From Escherichia coli (GTDB lineage: Bacteria > Pseudomonadota > Gammaproteobacteria > Enterobacterales > Enterobacteriaceae), in the NCBI RefSeq assembly GCF_003334765.1, contig NZ_QOWT01000002.1: a stretch of 64,000 nucleotides of DNA; one strand, given 5' to 3'. The notes beneath the pieces are model-generated. The model was given only the letters and a program-made list of their open reading frames with translations, did no database searches and had not been told where the DNA came from. Position numbers and translations under genes: made by a program. This document shows positions 34,677 through 48,011 of this stretch, one piece after another; position 1 is the first letter of the stretch, and the number at the start of each line of letters is the position of its first letter.

Positions 34677-35813
34677 TTAACGTGCCGGATGATGAACGGC
34701 GTTAAAACCCAGTTTACACAGCAATGATGCCGCACTGGCGTCATCACAAATTACATACAGAGATGACCATTCACGGCGCTCAAGATAGTTTTTGCGCAGT
34801 TTATCGAACTCACCCGGTATCCCGGCGACTTTACGCAGCGGTGCGTCATCGCGGCGCACATCATACACCAAATGCACCAGCCTTTTCAGCGTCGGTTGAT
34901 CGAGCGGGCCATGCAGCGTAATGCGACCAAACTCTGGCGCAGGCAGTAATGTATCCAGCGCAACGTGCTGTTCATGCCCAATAAACTTGCTATAAGCTTC
35001 AAACACTTGCGTAGTACCGCGTGCTTTACCTTCCAGGGTATAGCCTGCGATATGCGGCGTGCCGATATCCACTTTTTTCAGCAGCTCGACGTTGAGTTCC
35101 GGTTCGCCTTCCCAGACATCCAGCACTACGCTTAACTTCTGGCCTTCATTCAGGCAGGTCAGCAACGCAGTATTATCGACGACTGCGCCACGGCAGGCGT
35201 TAATCAGAATCGCTCCGGGCTTCAGGCTACGGATCAGTTTTTCATCCGCCAGATGTAGCGTTTTGTACGGACCATCTTTAAAGAGTGGCGTATGGAAAGT
35301 CAGAATATCCGCGCGCTGGACTAACTCATCCAGCGAGCGGAAATCACCCTCATCCCCACGGTCGGCGCGAGGCGGATCGCAAAGTAAGGTTTTAATCCCT
35401 AACGCTTCCAGTCGCGCCTGCAATCGACGTCCAACGTTACCAACGCCCACGATCCCCACCGTACGGTCGTACAGTGAAAATCCATCGCGTTCGGCAAGCA
35501 TCAGCAGGGAGGAGAAAACATATTCCACCACCGCAATCGCATTACAGCCAGGTGCAGCGGAAAAACCAATTCCCGCCTGCTTCAACCATGCTTCATCGAC
35601 ATGGTCGGTCCCCGCAGTGGCAGTGCCAACAAATTTAATGGGTTTTCCTGCCAGCAAAGATTCATTCACTTTCGTGACCGAACGCACCATCAGCGCATCC
35701 GCGTCTGCCAGTTGAGCGACGGGGATTGGACGCCCGGGAACCGCGGTCACCTCACCCAAACGGCTAAATAAGTCGCGGGCATAAGGCATATTTTCATCAA
35801 CAAGGATTTTCAC
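34677..35813 (-). CDS. pdxB: Erythronate-4-phosphate dehydrogenase
   Basis: 378-aa ORF matching PdxB; GTG start; 2-hydroxyacid dehydrogenase NAD motif GIVGVGNVG. Confidence 0.96.
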
Positions 35814-39659: not shown

Positions 39660-41732
<2,073 letters not shown>

Positions 41733-41750
41733 TCTGCTCTCGCAGTGTTT

Positions 41751-41833
<83 letters not shown>

Positions 41834-41852
41834 CTGCTCCAGACGCCGCAAC

Positions 41853-42131
41853 TTACTGCTGTGACGCCTGCTGAAACAGGTTTTCCCACATATCGGTCAC
41901 CAGCGCCTGGTCACGCGGCGACAATTCACCAGCACCAATGGCTTTTTCCAGACTCTGGCTAACGGTCGTATGCACCGCCTGAGCGGAGTGGTCATCACCA
42001 CTTTCCAGTTCTGCGATGGCTAATGTCAGGTGGCCACGCAAATACCCACTGGCAAACAACTCATCATCACTGGCATGGTCAACCATACCGTCGATTAATG
42101 CCAGAATGCGTGATTCAAACTCCGCGATCAT
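41853..42131 (-). CDS. yfcL: Uncharacterized protein YfcL
   Basis: 92-aa ORF matching YfcL. Confidence 0.9.
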
Positions 42132-42164
42132 CTTCTTTCCTCATTGTAAAACGTGGCGCTGGCT

Positions 42165-42713
42165 TCAGTTGAGCGCTTCCGGCCACGGGAACTGTTCCGC
42201 CGTAAGTTCCGGCGTGTGATAATAATTTTGTAGTGCTTTAATGAAGCGTGCCGGACGTTCCGGAATGCCATTTGTCAGATAATCCATCACCTGCGCATGT
42301 ACTCGCCGTTGAAACACCACACGATCCGGTTCGAAATCCCCTTCCAGATTGTCGCAACTGACGTTAAACGGATATCCCGCCGCCACACAGAACAACCAGT
42401 CGAGCGCCTGCGGCTTCACTTCAACATCTTCAAACTGGCTTTGCGTTTGGGCATCGCGTCCGTCCGGGCAATACCAGTAGCCGAAATCAACCAGCTCACG
42501 GCGCGCTTTCCCGGCAATACACCAGTGCGAAATCTCATGAATTGCGCTGGCATAAAAGCCATGAGCAAAGACGATTCGGTTATACGGTACTTCCGCATCA
42601 GCAGGAAGATAGATCGGTTCGTCGTCGCCTTTAATCAGACGGGTATTAAAATCATCGGCAAAGCAGCTATTAAAAATTTCAATCAACTGCTCGTAGTGGT
42701 GTGTACTGTTCAT
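42165..42713 (-). CDS. epmC: Elongation factor P hydroxylase EpmC (YfcM)
   Basis: ORF matches EpmC; 182 aa from MNSTHHYEQLIEIF (ATG 42711-42713); start overlaps the yfcA stop by 1 nt. The ORF extends 62 codons further upstream inside yfcA. Confidence 0.9.
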   Translation of the reverse strand: MNSTHHYEQLIEIFNSCFADDFNTRLIKGDDEPIYLPADAEVPYNRIVFAHGFYASAIHEISHWCIAGKARRELVDFGYWYCPDGRDAQTQSQFEDVEVKPQALDWLFCVAAGYPFNVSCDNLEGDFEPDRVVFQRRVHAQVMDYLTNGIPERPARFIKALQNYYHTPELTAEQFPWPEALN

Positions 42714-43522
42714 TAGTTCATCCCCAACCAGTGGAGGATCTCCTGTCCGTGGCTGTCGTAAAGTAATTTGGCACTCATCACCGCCGAGACGATAACAATC
42801 ATCGGGCGGATCAGCTTTTGTCCTTTGCTCAACACCAGTCGTGAACCCATGCGCGCGCCGAGGAACTGCCCCACCAGCATGACAAAGCCCGTCGCCCAAA
42901 TCACTTTGCCGCCGAGAATAAACAGCAGTAAACCGCCGATGTTTGACGTTGCGTTGAGTAATTTGGCGTGAGCCGTGGCTTTGGCGAGGTTAAATCCGCA
43001 CAGCGTAACGAAGGCCAGCGCGTAAAACGACCCGGCAGCCGGGCCAAAGAATCCATCATAAAAACCGACGCAGCCACCGGCTATTAACGCGAAGGGTAAA
43101 CCGTACATCCGGCGCTGGCGGTCTTCTTCACCTAGCTTTGGCATCAGCAAGAAATAGAGGCCGATACAAATTACCAGAATGGGCAAAATCTGCCGTAAGA
43201 CATCAGCCTGAACGTATTGCACCAGCAGTGCGCCGCTCATTGAGCCGACAAAGGTCATGGCGATATTGAGTTTCTGATCGCTTAAACTAACCACTTTGCG
43301 GCGAATAAAGTAGATAGTAGCGGAAATAGAGCCGCCGCAGGCTTGCAGTTTATTGGTTGCCAGCGCATTAGCGGGAGACATCCCCGCTGCCATCAATGCC
43401 GGAATGGTGAGTAACCCACCGCCACCGGCAATCGAGTCGATAAATCCCGCCAGCATGGCGACAAAAAAGAGAACTCCCAGCAACAGCGGGGAAACCATAA
43501 ACAGGCTATTAAACGTTTCCAT
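42713..43522 (-). CDS. yfcA: TauE/SafE-family membrane protein YfcA
   Basis: 269-aa polytopic ORF matching YfcA; start overlaps the mepA stop by 1 nt. Confidence 0.93.
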   Translation of the reverse strand: METFNSLFMVSPLLLGVLFFVAMLAGFIDSIAGGGGLLTIPALMAAGMSPANALATNKLQACGGSISATIYFIRRKVVSLSDQKLNIAMTFVGSMSGALLVQYVQADVLRQILPILVICIGLYFLLMPKLGEEDRQRRMYGLPFALIAGGCVGFYDGFFGPAAGSFYALAFVTLCGFNLAKATAHAKLLNATSNIGGLLLFILGGKVIWATGFVMLVGQFLGARMGSRLVLSKGQKLIRPMIVIVSAVMSAKLLYDSHGQEILHWLGMN

Positions 43523-44346
43523 TAGATCACGTGCTCATCCAGTAGCGCCTGGCAGGAAGGCGGCAACGGAGGCGGTGTCTTCTTCTCAGGCTTTGTTGTT
43601 CCCGGTTTTGGAGGTTCAAACCAGCTTTGCAGTTCTGCCCCGCAACCATCGCCTGATGGCGGTAAAGGTTGATCTTCACACTCCAGACTATCGGCAGGGC
43701 AACGTAATCGTACATGCATATGCGCGCGATGCTGGAACCAGGGTCGCACTTTGCGCAACCAGTCGCGATCGGTGCCCGCATCAAGGCAAAGTTGTTGTTT
43801 AATCGCCGGATTAACAAAAATGCGCGTGACGTCTTTGTCCTGGGCGGCGAGTTTGATCAAGCTGAAAATTTCTGGCTTCCACAGCGTGGAGACAACGTGT
43901 TTACCGTCGCGGGAAACTAAGTCCAGTGCTTGCGGGCGCAAGAGCTGCGCGGAGGTCCAGCGAGTTTTCGGCAGTTGCAGAAAGATATCGACATCCAGTC
44001 CGGTCTGGTGGCTGGCATGACCGCCGTTGAAACGCCCACCAGCGGGCATCCCCATATCGCCAATCAGCACCGTACCCATGCCCAGATTGCTCACCTGGCT
44101 ACTCAGACGCTGGATAAACATCACCAGATCCGGGTGACCGAAATAGCGACGCTGATCGGTACGCATGACCTGATAATGTTCGGACTGTATCGGCAGCGTG
44201 TCAGCGCCGACAATACAGCCATTAGAAAAACTGCCTATCGATTGTGCGCTACCCGGCACAGGTTGGGTTATTTTTTGCCACGGCGTCGCTGCCAGGCTGG
44301 CGCTACTGGCAAGCAGAGCCAGCAGCGCAATCGCGGTTTTATTCAT
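43522..44346 (-). CDS. mepA: Penicillin-insensitive murein DD-endopeptidase MepA
   Basis: 274-aa ORF with signal peptide matching MepA. Confidence 0.95.
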
Positions 44347-44349
44347 TTT

Positions 44350-45435
44350 TTACCAGCGTGGAATATCAGTCTTCACATCGGCATTTTGCGCCCGTTGCCG
44401 TAACAGGTGATCCATTAAAACGATCGCCAGCATCGCTTCTGCGATCGGCACTGCGCGGATCCCGACACAGGGATCGTGACGGCCTTTGGTGATCATCTCA
44501 ACTTCTTCGCCAAAGCGGTTAATGGTACGACCCGGCACGGTAATGCTGGAGGTCGGTTTCAGCGCCATATGGGCAATGATTTGCTGCCCGCTGCTGATAC
44601 CGCCGAGAATGCCGCCCGCATGGTTGCTCTGGAAACCGTCTTTGGTGATTTCATCGCGGTTCTGGCTGCCGCGCAGCGCCACCACGTCAAAGCCGTCGCC
44701 AATTTCCACGCCTTTCACCGCGTTGATGCTCATCAGCGCATGGGCGATGTCAGCATCCAGGCGGTCAAAGACCGGCTCGCCAAGTCCGGCAGGAACGCCA
44801 CTGGCAACAACGGTGACTTTAGCGCCGATGGAGTCGCCCTCTTTTTTCAGCGCACGCATCAACTCGTCTAACGCGTCGATTTTGTCGGGGTCCGGGCAAA
44901 AAAACGGATTTTGCTCGACCTGCGACCAGTCTTTGATATCCAGCGGAATGTCGCCCATCTGGGTCAGGCAGCCACGGATTTCAATACCAAATTTCTCGGC
45001 GAGATATTTTTTGGCAATAGCTCCTGCCGCCACGCGCATGGCGGTTTCGCGGGCGGAAGAACGTCCACCGCCGCGATAATCGCGCAGACCGTATTTTTGT
45101 TCGTAGGTGTAATCGGCATGGCCTGGACGGAAAACGTCCTTAATCGCACTGTAATCCTGAGAGCGCTGGTCAGTGTTTTCGATCAACAAGCCAATGCTGG
45201 TGCCGGTAGTAACGCCTTCAAAAACACCGGAGAGAATTTTGACCTGATCCGGCTCGCGGCGCTGGGTGGTATAGCGCGATGTCCCAGGGCGACGACGGTC
45301 GAGGTCATGTTGCAGGTCCGCTTCCGTCAGCGGAATGCCTGGCGGAACACCATCGACGATGCAGCCGAGCGCCAGCCCGTGCGATTCGCCGAAGGTGGTT
45401 ACGCGAAAGAGTTGTCCAATTGTGTTTCCAGCCAT
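44350..45435 (-). CDS. aroC: Chorismate synthase
   Basis: ORF matches AroC; 361 aa from [10 protein letters not shown] (ATG 45433-45435). Confidence 0.96.
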
Positions 45436-45469
45436 CACGGCTCCGTTATTGTTGTGTTTGCGTGTTTAC

Positions 45470-46402
45470 TTAATCTTTATAAATCGCGAAATGTTCTCGT
45501 GCGGCAATAAGCTGCTCTTTGGTGAGCATAAACACACCATCGCCGCCGTTATCAAACTCCAGCCAGGTGAACGGAACATCCGGATATTGTTCCATAAGAT
45601 GTACCATGCTGTTGCCGACTTCACAAATCAACACGCCATCATCAGCAAGGTAATCTGCCGCGTTACCGAGAATGCGACGCGTCAGTTTCAGGCCGTCAGT
45701 GCCAGATGCCAGGCCCAGTTCCGGCTCGTGGCGGTATTCGTTTGGCAGGTCGGACATATCTTCCGCATCGACATACGGCGGGTTAGTGACAATCAGGTCG
45801 TACTGCACTTTCGGCAAGTCGCGGAACAGATCGGAACGAATCGGAATGACGTTGTGGATCAGACCGTGTTCTTCGATGTTCTGTTCAGCAACCGCCAGCG
45901 CGTCTGGAGAGATATCCACCGCGTCGACTTCTGCATCCGGGAAGGCATAAGCACAGGCAATGGCGATGCAGCCGCTACCAGTACACATATCTAAAATATG
46001 CTGCGGTTGCTTGCTGATAAGTCCGGCAAATTTATTGTTGATCAGTTCACCAATCGGCGAGCGCGGCACCAGCACGCGTTCATCGACGTAAAATTCATGG
46101 CCGCAGAACCACGCTTTGTTGGTCAGGTAAGCCACCGGAATGCGTTCATTGACGCGGCGGATCACGCGTTCAACAATACGGTGTTTTTCGCTGGAGGTCA
46201 GACGCGCGGTGCGCATATCTTCCGGAATATCCAGCGGCAGGTAGAGCGAAGGCAACACCAGCTGTACGGCTTCATCCCACGGGTTATCGGTACCGTGACC
46301 GTACCAGATATTTGCCGCGCTGAAGCGGCTCACCGACCAGCGCAACATGTCCTGAATGGTTTGCAGCTCATTTACTGCTTCATCAACGAAAATTTTATCC
46401 AC
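45470..46402 (-). CDS. prmB: Ribosomal protein L3 glutamine N5-methyltransferase PrmB
   Basis: ORF matches PrmB; 310 aa from the GTG at 46400-46402 ([13 protein letters not shown]...); NPPY methyltransferase motif present. The ORF is open a further 111 codons upstream without a recognisable protein. Confidence 0.9.
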
Positions 46403-46567
46403 GTATTCCTCCAGGGCATGATCGCAATAATTTCGGCGGCTAGTTTGCCATGAAGATGACGATAAATCAGCATTCACGCGCGGTGAGTGAGGAAAAATAC
46501 GTTTAAAACGATCGATTGCGCTACGAGTCGGGTAAACTGTAGGAAAATTAGAAATAGAGACAGATAA

Positions 46568-47119
46568 ATGAAAAAGAAAACAACACTTAGCGAGGAGGAC
46601 CAGGCTCTGTTTCGCCAGTTGATGGCGGGGACTCGCAAGATTAAGCAGGACACGATTGTCCACCGACCGCAGCGTAAAAAAATCAGCGAAGTGCCGGTGA
46701 AACGCTTGATCCAGGAGCAGGCTGATGCCAGCCATTATTTCTCCGATGAGTTTCAGCCGTTATTAAATACCGAAGGTCCGGTGAAATATGTTCGCCCGGA
46801 TGTCAGCCATTTTGAGGCGAAGAAACTGCGCCGTGGCGATTATTCGCCGGAGTTGTTTTTGGATTTACACGGTCTGACGCAGCTGCAGGCCAAGCAGGAA
46901 CTGGGGGCGTTGATTGCCGCCTGCCGCCGTGAACATGTGTTTTGCGCCTGCGTGATGCATGGGCACGGGAAGCATATTTTGAAGCAACAAACACCGCTGT
47001 GGCTGGCACAACATCCGCATGTGATGGCCTTTCATCAGGCACCAAAAGAGTATGGCGGTGATGCGGCGTTGTTGGTGTTGATTGAAGTCGAAGAGTGGCT
47101 GCCGCCGGAGTTGCCCTGA
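46568..47119 (+). CDS. smrB: Smr-domain ribosome-rescue endonuclease SmrB (YfcN)
   Basis: 183-aa ORF matching SmrB; C-terminal Smr domain. Confidence 0.93.
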
Positions 47120-47152
47120 GGAGTTGAGCGCGTTGCGCCAGGTACGGGTAAT

Positions 47153-47174
47153 GGCAGGGGCGAATGCCCCTGCC
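47153..47174. terminator. GC-rich hairpin between convergent smrB and yfcO (no strong U-tract)
   Basis: ggcagggg-cgaat-gcccctgcc perfect 8-bp stem. Confidence 0.45.
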
Positions 47175-47189
47175 TGGTGTATCTAAGGG

Positions 47190-48011
47190 CTACAACTCAT
47201 TCAGTATGTACTGGAACCGGCAAGTAGAATCGATTGGCTGCATACTGCTGGTATCAACACGCACGACCATATCGTGTAACTGTTTGTCCGTTATAGGGTG
47301 TCGATTTGGCGTGACCGAGACTTCCGCCTTGTCACATCCCGACGCGGTAAAAGTTATCATCTGTGCAACCCAGCGGCAGTAACCACCTGTTTCATTCATC
47401 TGCGTACTGTCGCACAACTTCCCATCTTTCATCAAATACGTTGAAAGCGTTTTCTCAACCACACCGCCCGTCGACTGCAGGGTGAGCAGTTTTGACTTAC
47501 TGACATAATTCTCATTCCATGAAACGTCATAAGGTTGAACAGAAACGGATGGACAAATCGTGTCGTGACTATCAGGCCCCTGATACGTCACGCCCCCTGG
47601 AGAGGCTTCAGAGTCATTCATAATAACCAACCATGGACAAGAAAAGTAAGATTCAATCTCTGCAGAGACAATAACCTCAAATGTATAATACCCGCAGTTC
47701 CACCCAGACGGTAATCCAGGACAACTTGCTTTGTTGATATTTTGATGGTAGCCAATCAGCTTAACCGAAGGGGCAGGAGGAGGACCACTCCAGCTCACAT
47801 TTTGCAATATTTCCCCAGTCATGAGCCATTGACTACTTTTATATTCACCAACGTACACTGCGGATGGCATCATTATTTTTAAATTAAAAGTCGCAATATT
47901 ACGCGAATCACCGTTGTAACCGTAGTAAACGTCAACGCTATGCCCGGCAGCCATAGCTTCTGTAGTAGCAATAAGCATGACCAGAGCGAACAACCATCGT
48001 AGTATTTTCAT
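47190..48011 (-). CDS. yfcO: Fimbrial-operon protein YfcO (DUF2544; candidate tip adhesin)
   Basis: ORF matches YfcO; 273 aa from the ATG at 48009-48011; signal peptide; last gene of the yfc fimbrial operon. Confidence 0.9.
   Translation of the reverse strand: MKILRWLFALVMLIATTEAMAAGHSVDVYYGYNGDSRNIATFNLKIMMPSAVYVGEYKSSQWLMTGEILQNVSWSGPPPAPSVKLIGYHQNINKASCPGLPSGWNCGYYTFEVIVSAEIESYFSCPWLVIMNDSEASPGGVTYQGPDSHDTICPSVSVQPYDVSWNENYVSKSKLLTLQSTGGVVEKTLSTYLMKDGKLCDSTQMNETGGYCRWVAQMITFTASGCDKAEVSVTPNRHPITDKQLHDMVVRVDTSSMQPIDSTCRFQYILNEL

Follow-up and report, generated by a model that had tools for sequence, protein, structure and literature searches.

No kind of junction is commoner in bacterial operons than the stop/start overlap. 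In the termination-reinitiation systems of Huber et al. (2019, 2023; PMC6728339, PMC10666635), overlaps of -1 or -4 nt support reinitiation in native E. coli pairs, and a spacing of ~20-40 nt abolishes it (PMC10666635). [quoted passage not shown]

In this study, we analyzed a 64,000-nt stretch of E. coli DNA (hereafter the window) that carries the aroC-mepA-yfcA-epmC string, an E. coli operon that is already known and textbook-annotated. The cluster is named in earlier work (PMC11878033), aroC is a known target of the sRNA GcvB inside the operon (PMC9299463, PMC11878033), and mepA, yfcA, epmC and yfcL belong to one co-expression subnetwork (PMC11356199). The literature on the locus that we searched does not discuss its stop/start overlaps or their phylogenetic spread. 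A preliminary description of the window had read the overlap of yfcA with epmC as a hint that their products are functionally connected. We find instead an ordinary operon, compacted in one lineage, and consider it likely that its layout results from compaction, in a single family, of a gene order passed down within Enterobacterales, with termination-reinitiation at the tight junctions, and not a common YfcA-EpmC pathway.

Gene order, junctions and ends of the operon

All genes of the cluster lie on the minus strand, and the locus is 100% identical in sequence to the MG1655 record. The first gene, prmB (45470..46402), is annotated in that record by RefSeq as coding for the ribosomal protein L3 glutamine methyltransferase, its translation was checked, and it is separated by 34 nt from aroC (44350..45435), the gene for chorismate synthase by annotation and by an NCBIfam equivalog match (NF003793/TIGR00033, E 1.8e-153). 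The aroC stop codon (TAA, 44352-44350) is followed by a 3-nt spacer, AAA (44347..44349), and by the ATG (44346-44344) of mepA (43522..44346), which encodes a periplasmic penicillin-insensitive murein DD/LD-endopeptidase with a signal peptide; MepA has a full-length Peptidase_M74 match (PF03411, E 3.5e-93) and matches the NCBIfam equivalog NF006947 above its cut-off. At a TAATG overlap (43520..43524), base 43522 belongs both to the mepA stop (TAA, 43524-43522) and to the ATG (43522-43520) of yfcA (42713..43522). YfcA is an inner-membrane TauE/SafE (TSUP) protein with a full-length Pfam TauE match (PF01925, E 1.3e-48, model positions 1-237 of 237), and the NCBIfam equivalog that it matches, NF007909, is named 'hypothetical protein'. 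A second TAATG overlap (42711..42715) joins the yfcA stop (TAA, 42715-42713) through base 42713 to the ATG (42713-42711) of epmC, also called yfcM (42165..42713), which encodes the EF-P beta-lysyl-Lys34 hydroxylase (Pfam EpmC, PF04315, E 2.3e-81). EpmC also matches PDB 3WTR/4PDN over residues 1-181 (E 1.4e-127), and its 2-His-1-carboxylate metal site (H59, H63, E98), whose role has been described (PMC4231759), is invariant in 36 diverse homologues. The last gene of the cluster, yfcL (41853..42131; PF08891, by annotation), follows after 33 nt and has its own Shine-Dalgarno (SD) sequence. The co-directional junctions aroC/mepA, mepA/yfcA and yfcA/epmC thus measure +3/-1/-1 nt, with agreement between the sequence, the ORF list and the RefSeq annotation. 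The preliminary description had given these junctions exactly, its identification of AroC, MepA, YfcA and EpmC matches the profiles, and its view of a single unit fits the tight, co-directional packing of the genes.

Our promoter and terminator scan found no consensus promoter or convincing terminator within the gene string; nor did the minus strand give a sigma-70-like site, even ahead of prmB, and terminator-like matches inside yfcA are no commoner than in shuffled sequence. Past yfcL, and only there, RNA folding shows hairpins of REP/BIME type between the convergent genes yfcL and mnmC, in a region (41733..41852) that folds at -53.6 kcal/mol (z = -3.8 vs shuffles) and is probably the 3' end of the transcription unit. 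The hairpins appear to be REP elements from a reading of their letters (GCCGGATGCGGCG...), not by tool assignment: the inverted-repeat finder returned no REP hairpins in the region where folding shows them, and Rfam gave no matches in 41000-47500.

Start codons and translation at the tight junctions

The strength of SD pairing differs along the string. The SD of prmB is the strongest (-9.3 kcal/mol), that of yfcL reaches -6.3 kcal/mol, and epmC has a duplex of -5.5 kcal/mol, with a GGGGA SD-like motif within the 3' end of yfcA, ahead of the TAATG; 'GGGGATGAACtaaTGAAC' at this junction is kept in core Enterobacteriaceae. Upstream of mepA (-2.8 kcal/mol vs a random mean of -2.7) and yfcA (-3.1 kcal/mol), the duplexes are not above random background, which makes it plausible that both genes are translationally coupled to the gene before them by termination-reinitiation. 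Since mepA and yfcA lack an SD of their own, we infer that most of their translation probably comes from ribosomes that have finished the preceding gene and start again in place, and epmC would probably be served by reinitiation plus its weak internal SD (GGGGA). The products of the four or five downstream genes are housekeeping proteins without a functional relation: AroC is a biosynthetic enzyme of the cytoplasm, MepA a murein endopeptidase of the periplasm, YfcA a TSUP protein of the inner membrane, EpmC an EF-P hydroxylase of the cytoplasm and YfcL a small protein. The squeezing of the intergenic spacers to +3/-1/-1 nt in Enterobacteriaceae probably serves to set relative expression levels and to save space.

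This depends on the annotated starts being the true ones. The overlaps would be annotation artefacts, and nothing would be coupled, if translation of yfcA began at its in-frame Met9, with 23 nt between it and mepA, or if epmC began further downstream. An in-frame ATG is indeed present at yfcA codon 9 in E. coli and most Enterobacteriaceae, and the N-terminal 8 residues of YfcA are variable and have no counterpart at the homologous start (MEWF...) of other families. However, among the 26 Enterobacteriaceae loci with the -1 geometry Met9 is not always kept, codon 9 being ACG, TTG or TCT in several (L016, L020, L022, L029, L031), whereas 26/26 have the ATG that overlaps the stop of mepA. The annotated start of epmC is residue 1 of the crystallized protein (3WTR/4PDN), and RefSeq agrees with the annotated starts. 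Given the conserved overlapping ATG of yfcA and the match to the EpmC crystal N-terminus, we reject the artefact reading as extremely improbable and regard the annotated start codons of both genes as credible.

Conservation of the gene order

Our Enterobacterales sample comprised the best 80 loci from a contig scan with a diverse EpmC alignment, all 80 of them from Enterobacterales. Among these best 80 loci, yfcA adjoins epmC in 77 of ~79 informative loci and in 7/7 sampled families, a far wider distribution than the restriction to Escherichia that, according to the preliminary description, would have told against its proposal. The yfcA/epmC overlap itself occurs only in Enterobacteriaceae (26/77 of these loci), where the mepA/yfcA T[AG]ATG overlap is kept in 26 loci as well. 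In the other families (Erwiniaceae, Yersiniaceae, Pectobacteriaceae, Hafniaceae, Morganellaceae and Budviciaceae), 5-236 nt separate yfcA from epmC; the median is 62 nt in those 29 loci outside Enterobacteriaceae where mepA is present too, and published work finds coupling largely gone at spacings of this order (PMC10666635). The aroC-mepA gap is 2-5 nt in most Enterobacterales loci, and yfcL adjoins epmC in 78/80 of the best 80 loci, its linkage to epmC occurring in two orders and once as a fusion with EpmC.

Genes leave the string independently of one another. All 12 Morganellaceae loci that keep yfcA lack mepA, yfcA is gone from the locus in Rouxiella, and both mepA and yfcA are gone in Arsenophonus, with epmC staying in each of the latter two. 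The string is also split between mepA and yfcA by a 4.5-kb insertion in Hafnia and by rearrangements in Serratia marcescens and Edwardsiella ictaluri, and in these split strings yfcA remains with epmC-yfcL. The yfcA-epmC junction is one of the most persistent within Enterobacterales.

Outside the order the linkage ends. A TauE gene was found near epmC in 0/9 non-Enterobacterales epmC lineages, where flanks reached at most 8 kb and two of the flank sets were contigs of ~1.2-2.7 kb. In these lineages epmC has pdxB, xni, or an NAD-kinase-like gene (Alteromonadales) together with yfcL as neighbors, or has none. Metagenome EpmC representatives often lay on contigs of too little length to inform on this point (L084, L086-88). 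Approached from the other side, by a degenerate-motif DNA scan, YfcA-like metagenome genes of <60% identity, which are homologues of unproven orthology, had epmC downstream in 0/59 loci and mepA upstream in 0/50, while Enterobacterales-type yfcA genes in metagenome contigs were followed by epmC in 26/26. Because loci were anchored on epmC or on the YfcA motif, a partner relocated elsewhere in the genome is scored as absent. No recurrence of the adjacency in distant lineages and no independent origin was seen (9/9 lineages and 59/59 loci without it), which argues for only one evolutionary origin.

YfcA and EpmC as candidate partners

The persistence of yfcA-epmC within Enterobacterales could mean that the two genes, perhaps with yfcL, form a true functional module, in which YfcA would import, export or process a small molecule of the EpmC reaction, either a requirement of EpmC or a reaction product, and the overlap would enforce matched synthesis. 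In support of this are the adjacency in all seven families, the 26/26 metagenome genes, and the fact that yfcA stays with epmC-yfcL when mepA is lost or the string is split. EpmC also requires cell-filtrate components that have not been identified (PMC4231759), and interacting proteins are enriched among overlapping pairs (PMC10666635). Nevertheless, the linkage has a single origin and is absent outside Enterobacterales from the epmC and YfcA sides alike, only one family has the overlap, gaps elsewhere reaching 236 nt, and Rouxiella and Arsenophonus keep epmC without an adjacent yfcA. EpmC hydroxylates EF-P in vitro as purified protein with a protein-free filtrate (PMC4231759), a reaction in which no membrane protein is present and soluble components suffice. 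Hydroxylation affects EF-P function little (PMC11388002), which makes a dedicated transporter seem unlikely, and our literature searches found no paper linking yfcA and epmC and no experimental papers on E. coli YfcA, yfcA phenotypes or a YfcA/EF-P connection. We consider a module of this kind very unlikely. A variant, in which yfcA-epmC-yfcL is a functional trio, YfcL and a BacA-fold YfcA provide or control helper components of EpmC (a cofactor or electron donor) and the overlap matches their synthesis, strikes us as very unlikely, too.

Another possibility is that the real partner of YfcA is MepA or the cell envelope, that its substrate is lipid-linked or periplasmic and murein-related, as a BacA/UppP fold would suggest, and that the tie to epmC is incidental. 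The AF2 model of YfcA (pLDDT 84) finds its only PDB relatives in BacA/UppP (6FMT and 5OON; TM 0.54-0.59, probability 1.00), all other structural matches having TM below 0.35; the model reproduces a likeness to the BacA fold that had been predicted earlier (PMC4602095). Both have a membrane fold with an internal duplication and with helices that are re-entrant or broken (PMC4602095), and the predicted fold of YfcA aligns with BacA over ~266-282 columns. They differ in that identity is 15-16% and that YfcA, in TauE/SafE, belongs to another Pfam family. Searched by sequence, YfcA has no PDB match at E<=1, BacA included, and so we do not place it in the BacA/UppP family, the likeness being one of fold only; a transporter-like inverted repeat resembling the BacA fold does not imply the same chemistry.

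In favor of such a partnership, the 1-nt mepA/yfcA overlap is kept in 26 loci, yfcA has no SD and therefore probably depends on mepA translation, and outside Enterobacteriaceae yfcA lies nearer mepA (median gap 8 nt) than epmC in 22/29 loci. In H. influenzae, HI_0197 is confirmed as mepA, and the adjoining HI_0198 is probably annotated as a YfcA/UPF0721-family protein. Yet 12/12 yfcA-keeping Morganellaceae loci lack mepA, the string splits between mepA and yfcA in at least three lineages, and no mepA lies upstream in the 50 YfcA-like metagenome loci. A partnership of YfcA with MepA or the envelope is, in our judgment, quite unlikely.

We return, then, to family-specific compaction of an inherited gene order. 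The linkage arose once, in Enterobacterales, and the overlap later, in Enterobacteriaceae, and the overlap is for that reason no basis for a role of YfcA in EF-P modification and should not serve to assign one. The functional hint of the preliminary description is not supported in view of this distribution, the retention of epmC where yfcA has gone, the activity of EpmC in vitro and the ~70% of close E. coli pairs that are not complex partners; we infer that a functional YfcA-EpmC link is absent. As it stands, the locus is of little import, and the useful outcome is a negative one. Were the minority functional reading true, it would bear on two small problems: what the orphan TSUP protein YfcA has as its substrate, and which cofactor or partner the unusual hydroxylase EpmC depends on.

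Comparison with other overlapping genes and with known reinitiation systems

Overlaps are frequent in the window itself: of 46 adjacent gene pairs with both genes on the same strand, nine overlap, the extent being 1 nt in five, 4 nt in three and 11 nt in one. Two of the pairs, usg/truA (1 nt) and folC/dedD (11 nt), resemble the yfcA/epmC pair in that stop/start overlap joins genes without a common pathway, although both are two-gene junctions, whereas aroC-mepA-yfcA-epmC has three consecutive tight ones. For consecutive junctions the analogue in the window is the yfcS-R-Q-P-O fimbrial string, with four in a row of the overlap kind, its genes differing from those studied here in being functionally related.

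Altogether, the locus resembles the termination-reinitiation systems described for E. coli in its co-directional TAATG overlaps and +3 spacer, in the lack of an SD at the downstream mepA and yfcA starts, and in a geometry of the -8 to +6 class; it differs from them in that its coupling is predicted, from geometry and SD energies. With products in three compartments and no known complex subunits, it falls in with the majority of close E. coli pairs, those without a known complex.

Junctions and translation of the aroC-mepA-yfcA-epmC string

The segment that holds the string (41700-45600) matches E. coli K-12 MG1655 at 100% identity and occurs in all but one (5,425) of the 5,426 complete E. coli genomes; as an already known locus, it is of low interest. 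RefSeq annotates, all on the minus strand, prmB (45470-46402), aroC (44350-45435; NCBIfam equivalog match), mepA (43522-44346; NCBIfam equivalog and Peptidase_M74 matches), yfcA (42713-43522; Pfam TauE/SafE match over the full profile), epmC (42165-42713; PF04315 match) and yfcL (41853-42131; PF08891), beyond which lie the convergent mnmC and, after it, fabB. The junctions of +3, -1 and -1 nt reported in the preliminary description agree exactly with our reading of the sequence: aroC/mepA is TAA-AAA-ATG, a gap of 3 nt, and mepA/yfcA and yfcA/epmC are each TAATG, overlapping by 1 nt, with looser junctions on the outside (prmB/aroC, 34 nt; epmC/yfcL, 33 nt). The annotated starts are reliable, since the yfcA ATG that overlaps the mepA stop is kept in 26/26 Enterobacteriaceae loci with such geometry, several of which have replaced the in-frame Met9 of yfcA, and the N-terminus of EpmC fits that of the crystallised protein (residues 1-181 match YfcM; 3WTR/4PDN).

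Termination-reinitiation is the most likely mechanism of coupling. Overlaps of -1 or -4 nt allow efficient reinitiation and spacings of 20-40 nt abolish it (PMC10666635), and mepA and yfcA lack ribosome-binding sites of their own, given that the anti-Shine-Dalgarno duplex energies before their starts (-2.8 and -3.1 kcal/mol) are close to the random mean of -2.7 kcal/mol; the values are -9.3 for prmB, -5.8 for aroC, -5.5 for epmC and -6.3 for yfcL. Ribosomes would pass from aroC to mepA and on to yfcA in this way, and epmC, which has a weak ribosome-binding site (GGGGA) within the 3' end of yfcA, would be reached by reinitiating ribosomes only in part. Within the operon, the sRNA GcvB targets aroC (PMC11878033, PMC9299463), and one co-expression subnetwork holds mepA, yfcA, epmC and yfcL (PMC11356199). 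The convergent yfcL/mnmC spacer, which follows yfcL, is taken up by two stable hairpins of the REP type (BIME; 41733-41852; fold of -53.6 kcal/mol, z = -3.8).

Gene neighbourhoods within and outside Enterobacterales

The genome collection was scanned with a diverse EpmC alignment, and gene order and junction geometry were read by tblastn with in-frame extension. Among the best 80 loci, which span seven Enterobacterales families, yfcA adjoins epmC in 77, and the linkage therefore extends beyond Escherichia. The overlap itself (-1 or -4 nt) occurs in 26 of these best 80 loci, only in Enterobacteriaceae; elsewhere the two genes are separated by 18-78 nt (Erwiniaceae), 62-236 nt (Yersiniaceae), 17-23 nt (Morganellaceae), 5-74 nt (Pectobacteriaceae), 87-132 nt (Hafniaceae) or 30 nt (Budviciaceae). 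Outside Enterobacteriaceae, yfcA lies nearer to mepA than to epmC in 22/29 loci (median distances of 8 and 62 nt). The genes of the string are lost independently of each other: all Morganellaceae loci are without mepA, Rouxiella has lost yfcA from the locus (aroC-mepA-epmC), and Arsenophonus has lost both mepA and yfcA (aroC-epmC). A 4.5-kb insertion splits the string in Hafnia, and rearrangements split it in Serratia marcescens and Edwardsiella ictaluri; each time mepA is parted from yfcA, which remains with epmC-yfcL, a pattern that speaks for rather than against a yfcA-epmC link. The insertion in Hafnia paralvei (locus L065, 786-4813 in its own coordinates) carries a PRK10519-family duplicate, an isoaspartyl dipeptidase gene (iadA), a HypT-like LysR regulator and an opposite-strand racemase, and yfcA-epmC-yfcL must therefore have its own promoter in this species.

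From the side of yfcA, a degenerate DNA pattern of the YfcA motif YDGxxGPxxGSFxA retrieved 120 metagenome loci. Those with an Enterobacterales-type YfcA (at least 60% identity; n=35) have epmC in 26/26 cases with sufficient downstream sequence and mepA in 22/23 with sufficient upstream sequence. The 84 loci with YfcA-like genes (28-58% identity), which are putative orthologues in an arbitrary sample, have epmC downstream in 0/59 and mepA upstream in 0/50, and the nearest of them have mixed neighbours (Lon-like protease, thiE, rhodanese, aldehyde dehydrogenase). For putative orthologues in such a sample, the dichotomy is clean.

Nine epmC lineages outside Enterobacterales (two Alteromonadales-type, Halopseudomonas xiamenensis, Legionella pneumophila, Maricurvus, Spartinivicinus and three uncultured contig sets, two of these of ~1.2-2.7 kb contigs) likewise have no TauE-family gene, mepA or aroC within the flanks covered, up to 8 kb (0/9). 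Here epmC is followed by pdxB, xni-pdxB, a NAD-kinase-family gene and yfcL, or nothing, and several of the junctions overlap by 4-11 nt, such that EpmC would be "coupled" translationally to unrelated genes that differ between lineages. The pdxB arrangement is found in Halopseudomonas, Maricurvus and two uncultured lineages (L085 5495-7263; L093 8001-9773; L095 8001-10680; L086-L088), an xni-like (5'-3' exonuclease) gene intervening in some of them and overlaps of 4-8 nt being frequent; E. coli pdxB lies ~6.4 kb away (34677-35813). These arrangements suggest an old regional synteny of epmC, yfcL, mnmC, fabB and pdxB.

The epmC-yfcL linkage (41853-42713) is broader than that of yfcA-epmC. It holds in 78 of the best 80 Enterobacterales loci, and two Alteromonadales-type genomes (L089 8001-10149; L092 8001-10024) have epmC, a NAD-kinase-family gene, yfcL, three flgO genes, convergent mnmC and fabB. 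The NAD-kinase-family gene in these two encodes 380 aa and overlaps epmC by 4 or 11 nt. Distant members of this family (PF01513/PF20143, below NCBIfam cut-offs) adjoin or lie near epmC in the Alteromonadales-type genomes and Maricurvus (L089 8717-9859; L092 8560-9702; L095 11204-12370), a suggestive position given that EpmC is stimulated by NADPH yet does not bind it (PMC4231759). A single Enterobacteriaceae NCBI record (P0015) contains a 286-aa in-frame EpmC-YfcL read-through fusion, which may be a real loss of the stop codon or a sequencing error.

Overlap as a guide to YfcA function

The preliminary description is supported in part: it read the string as one coupled unit, which is probably right, with reinitiation as the likely basis, and it took the yfcA/epmC overlap as a functional hint, which is a weak inference. 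The two genes became neighbours once, in Enterobacterales, and were compacted into an overlap later, in Enterobacteriaceae; at this locus EpmC occurs without YfcA and YfcA without EpmC. Since overlaps also commonly join unrelated genes, the case for a functional YfcA-EpmC connection is weak. Of the 46 pairs of neighbours on the same strand in the 64-kb window, nine overlap (1 nt in five pairs, 4 nt in three and 11 nt in one), and in the yfc fimbrial operon four tight junctions follow one another; as a pattern, the overlaps are no more than expected by chance. Across E. coli, 707/2,987 unidirectional pairs (24%) lie within -8 to +6 nt, and subunits of one complex make up 30% of closely spaced pairs vs 7% of distant ones (PMC10666635), which together make an overlap no more than a slight statistical hint. 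The window also holds its own controls against inferring function from overlaps: usg/truA (1 nt) and folC/dedD (11 nt) are pairs without shared function.

Biochemically, beta-lysyl-EF-P is hydroxylated in vitro by purified EpmC when Fe(II), NADPH and a filtrate essentially free of protein are supplied, so that a membrane protein is not required, although the reaction still depends on unidentified small components (PMC4231759). EF-P hydroxylation is itself optional, with scant measurable effect on EF-P function (PMC11388002). Our literature search found no experimental work on E. coli YfcA, and a PDB sequence search with YfcA gave no match at E<=1, and hence no solved TauE/SafE structure at the sequence level. 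In the AlphaFold (AF2) model of YfcA (pLDDT 84, pTM 0.83), the sole convincing solved relative is BacA/UppP (6FMT, 5OON; TM 0.54-0.59), which reproduces an earlier prediction (PMC4602095). Through this likeness, at the fold level and from a predicted model, of YfcA to BacA, an undecaprenyl-pyrophosphate phosphatase, the adjoining mepA, a murein endopeptidase gene, is no weaker a candidate partner of YfcA than epmC, although the mepA-yfcA link is likewise not conserved outside Enterobacterales.
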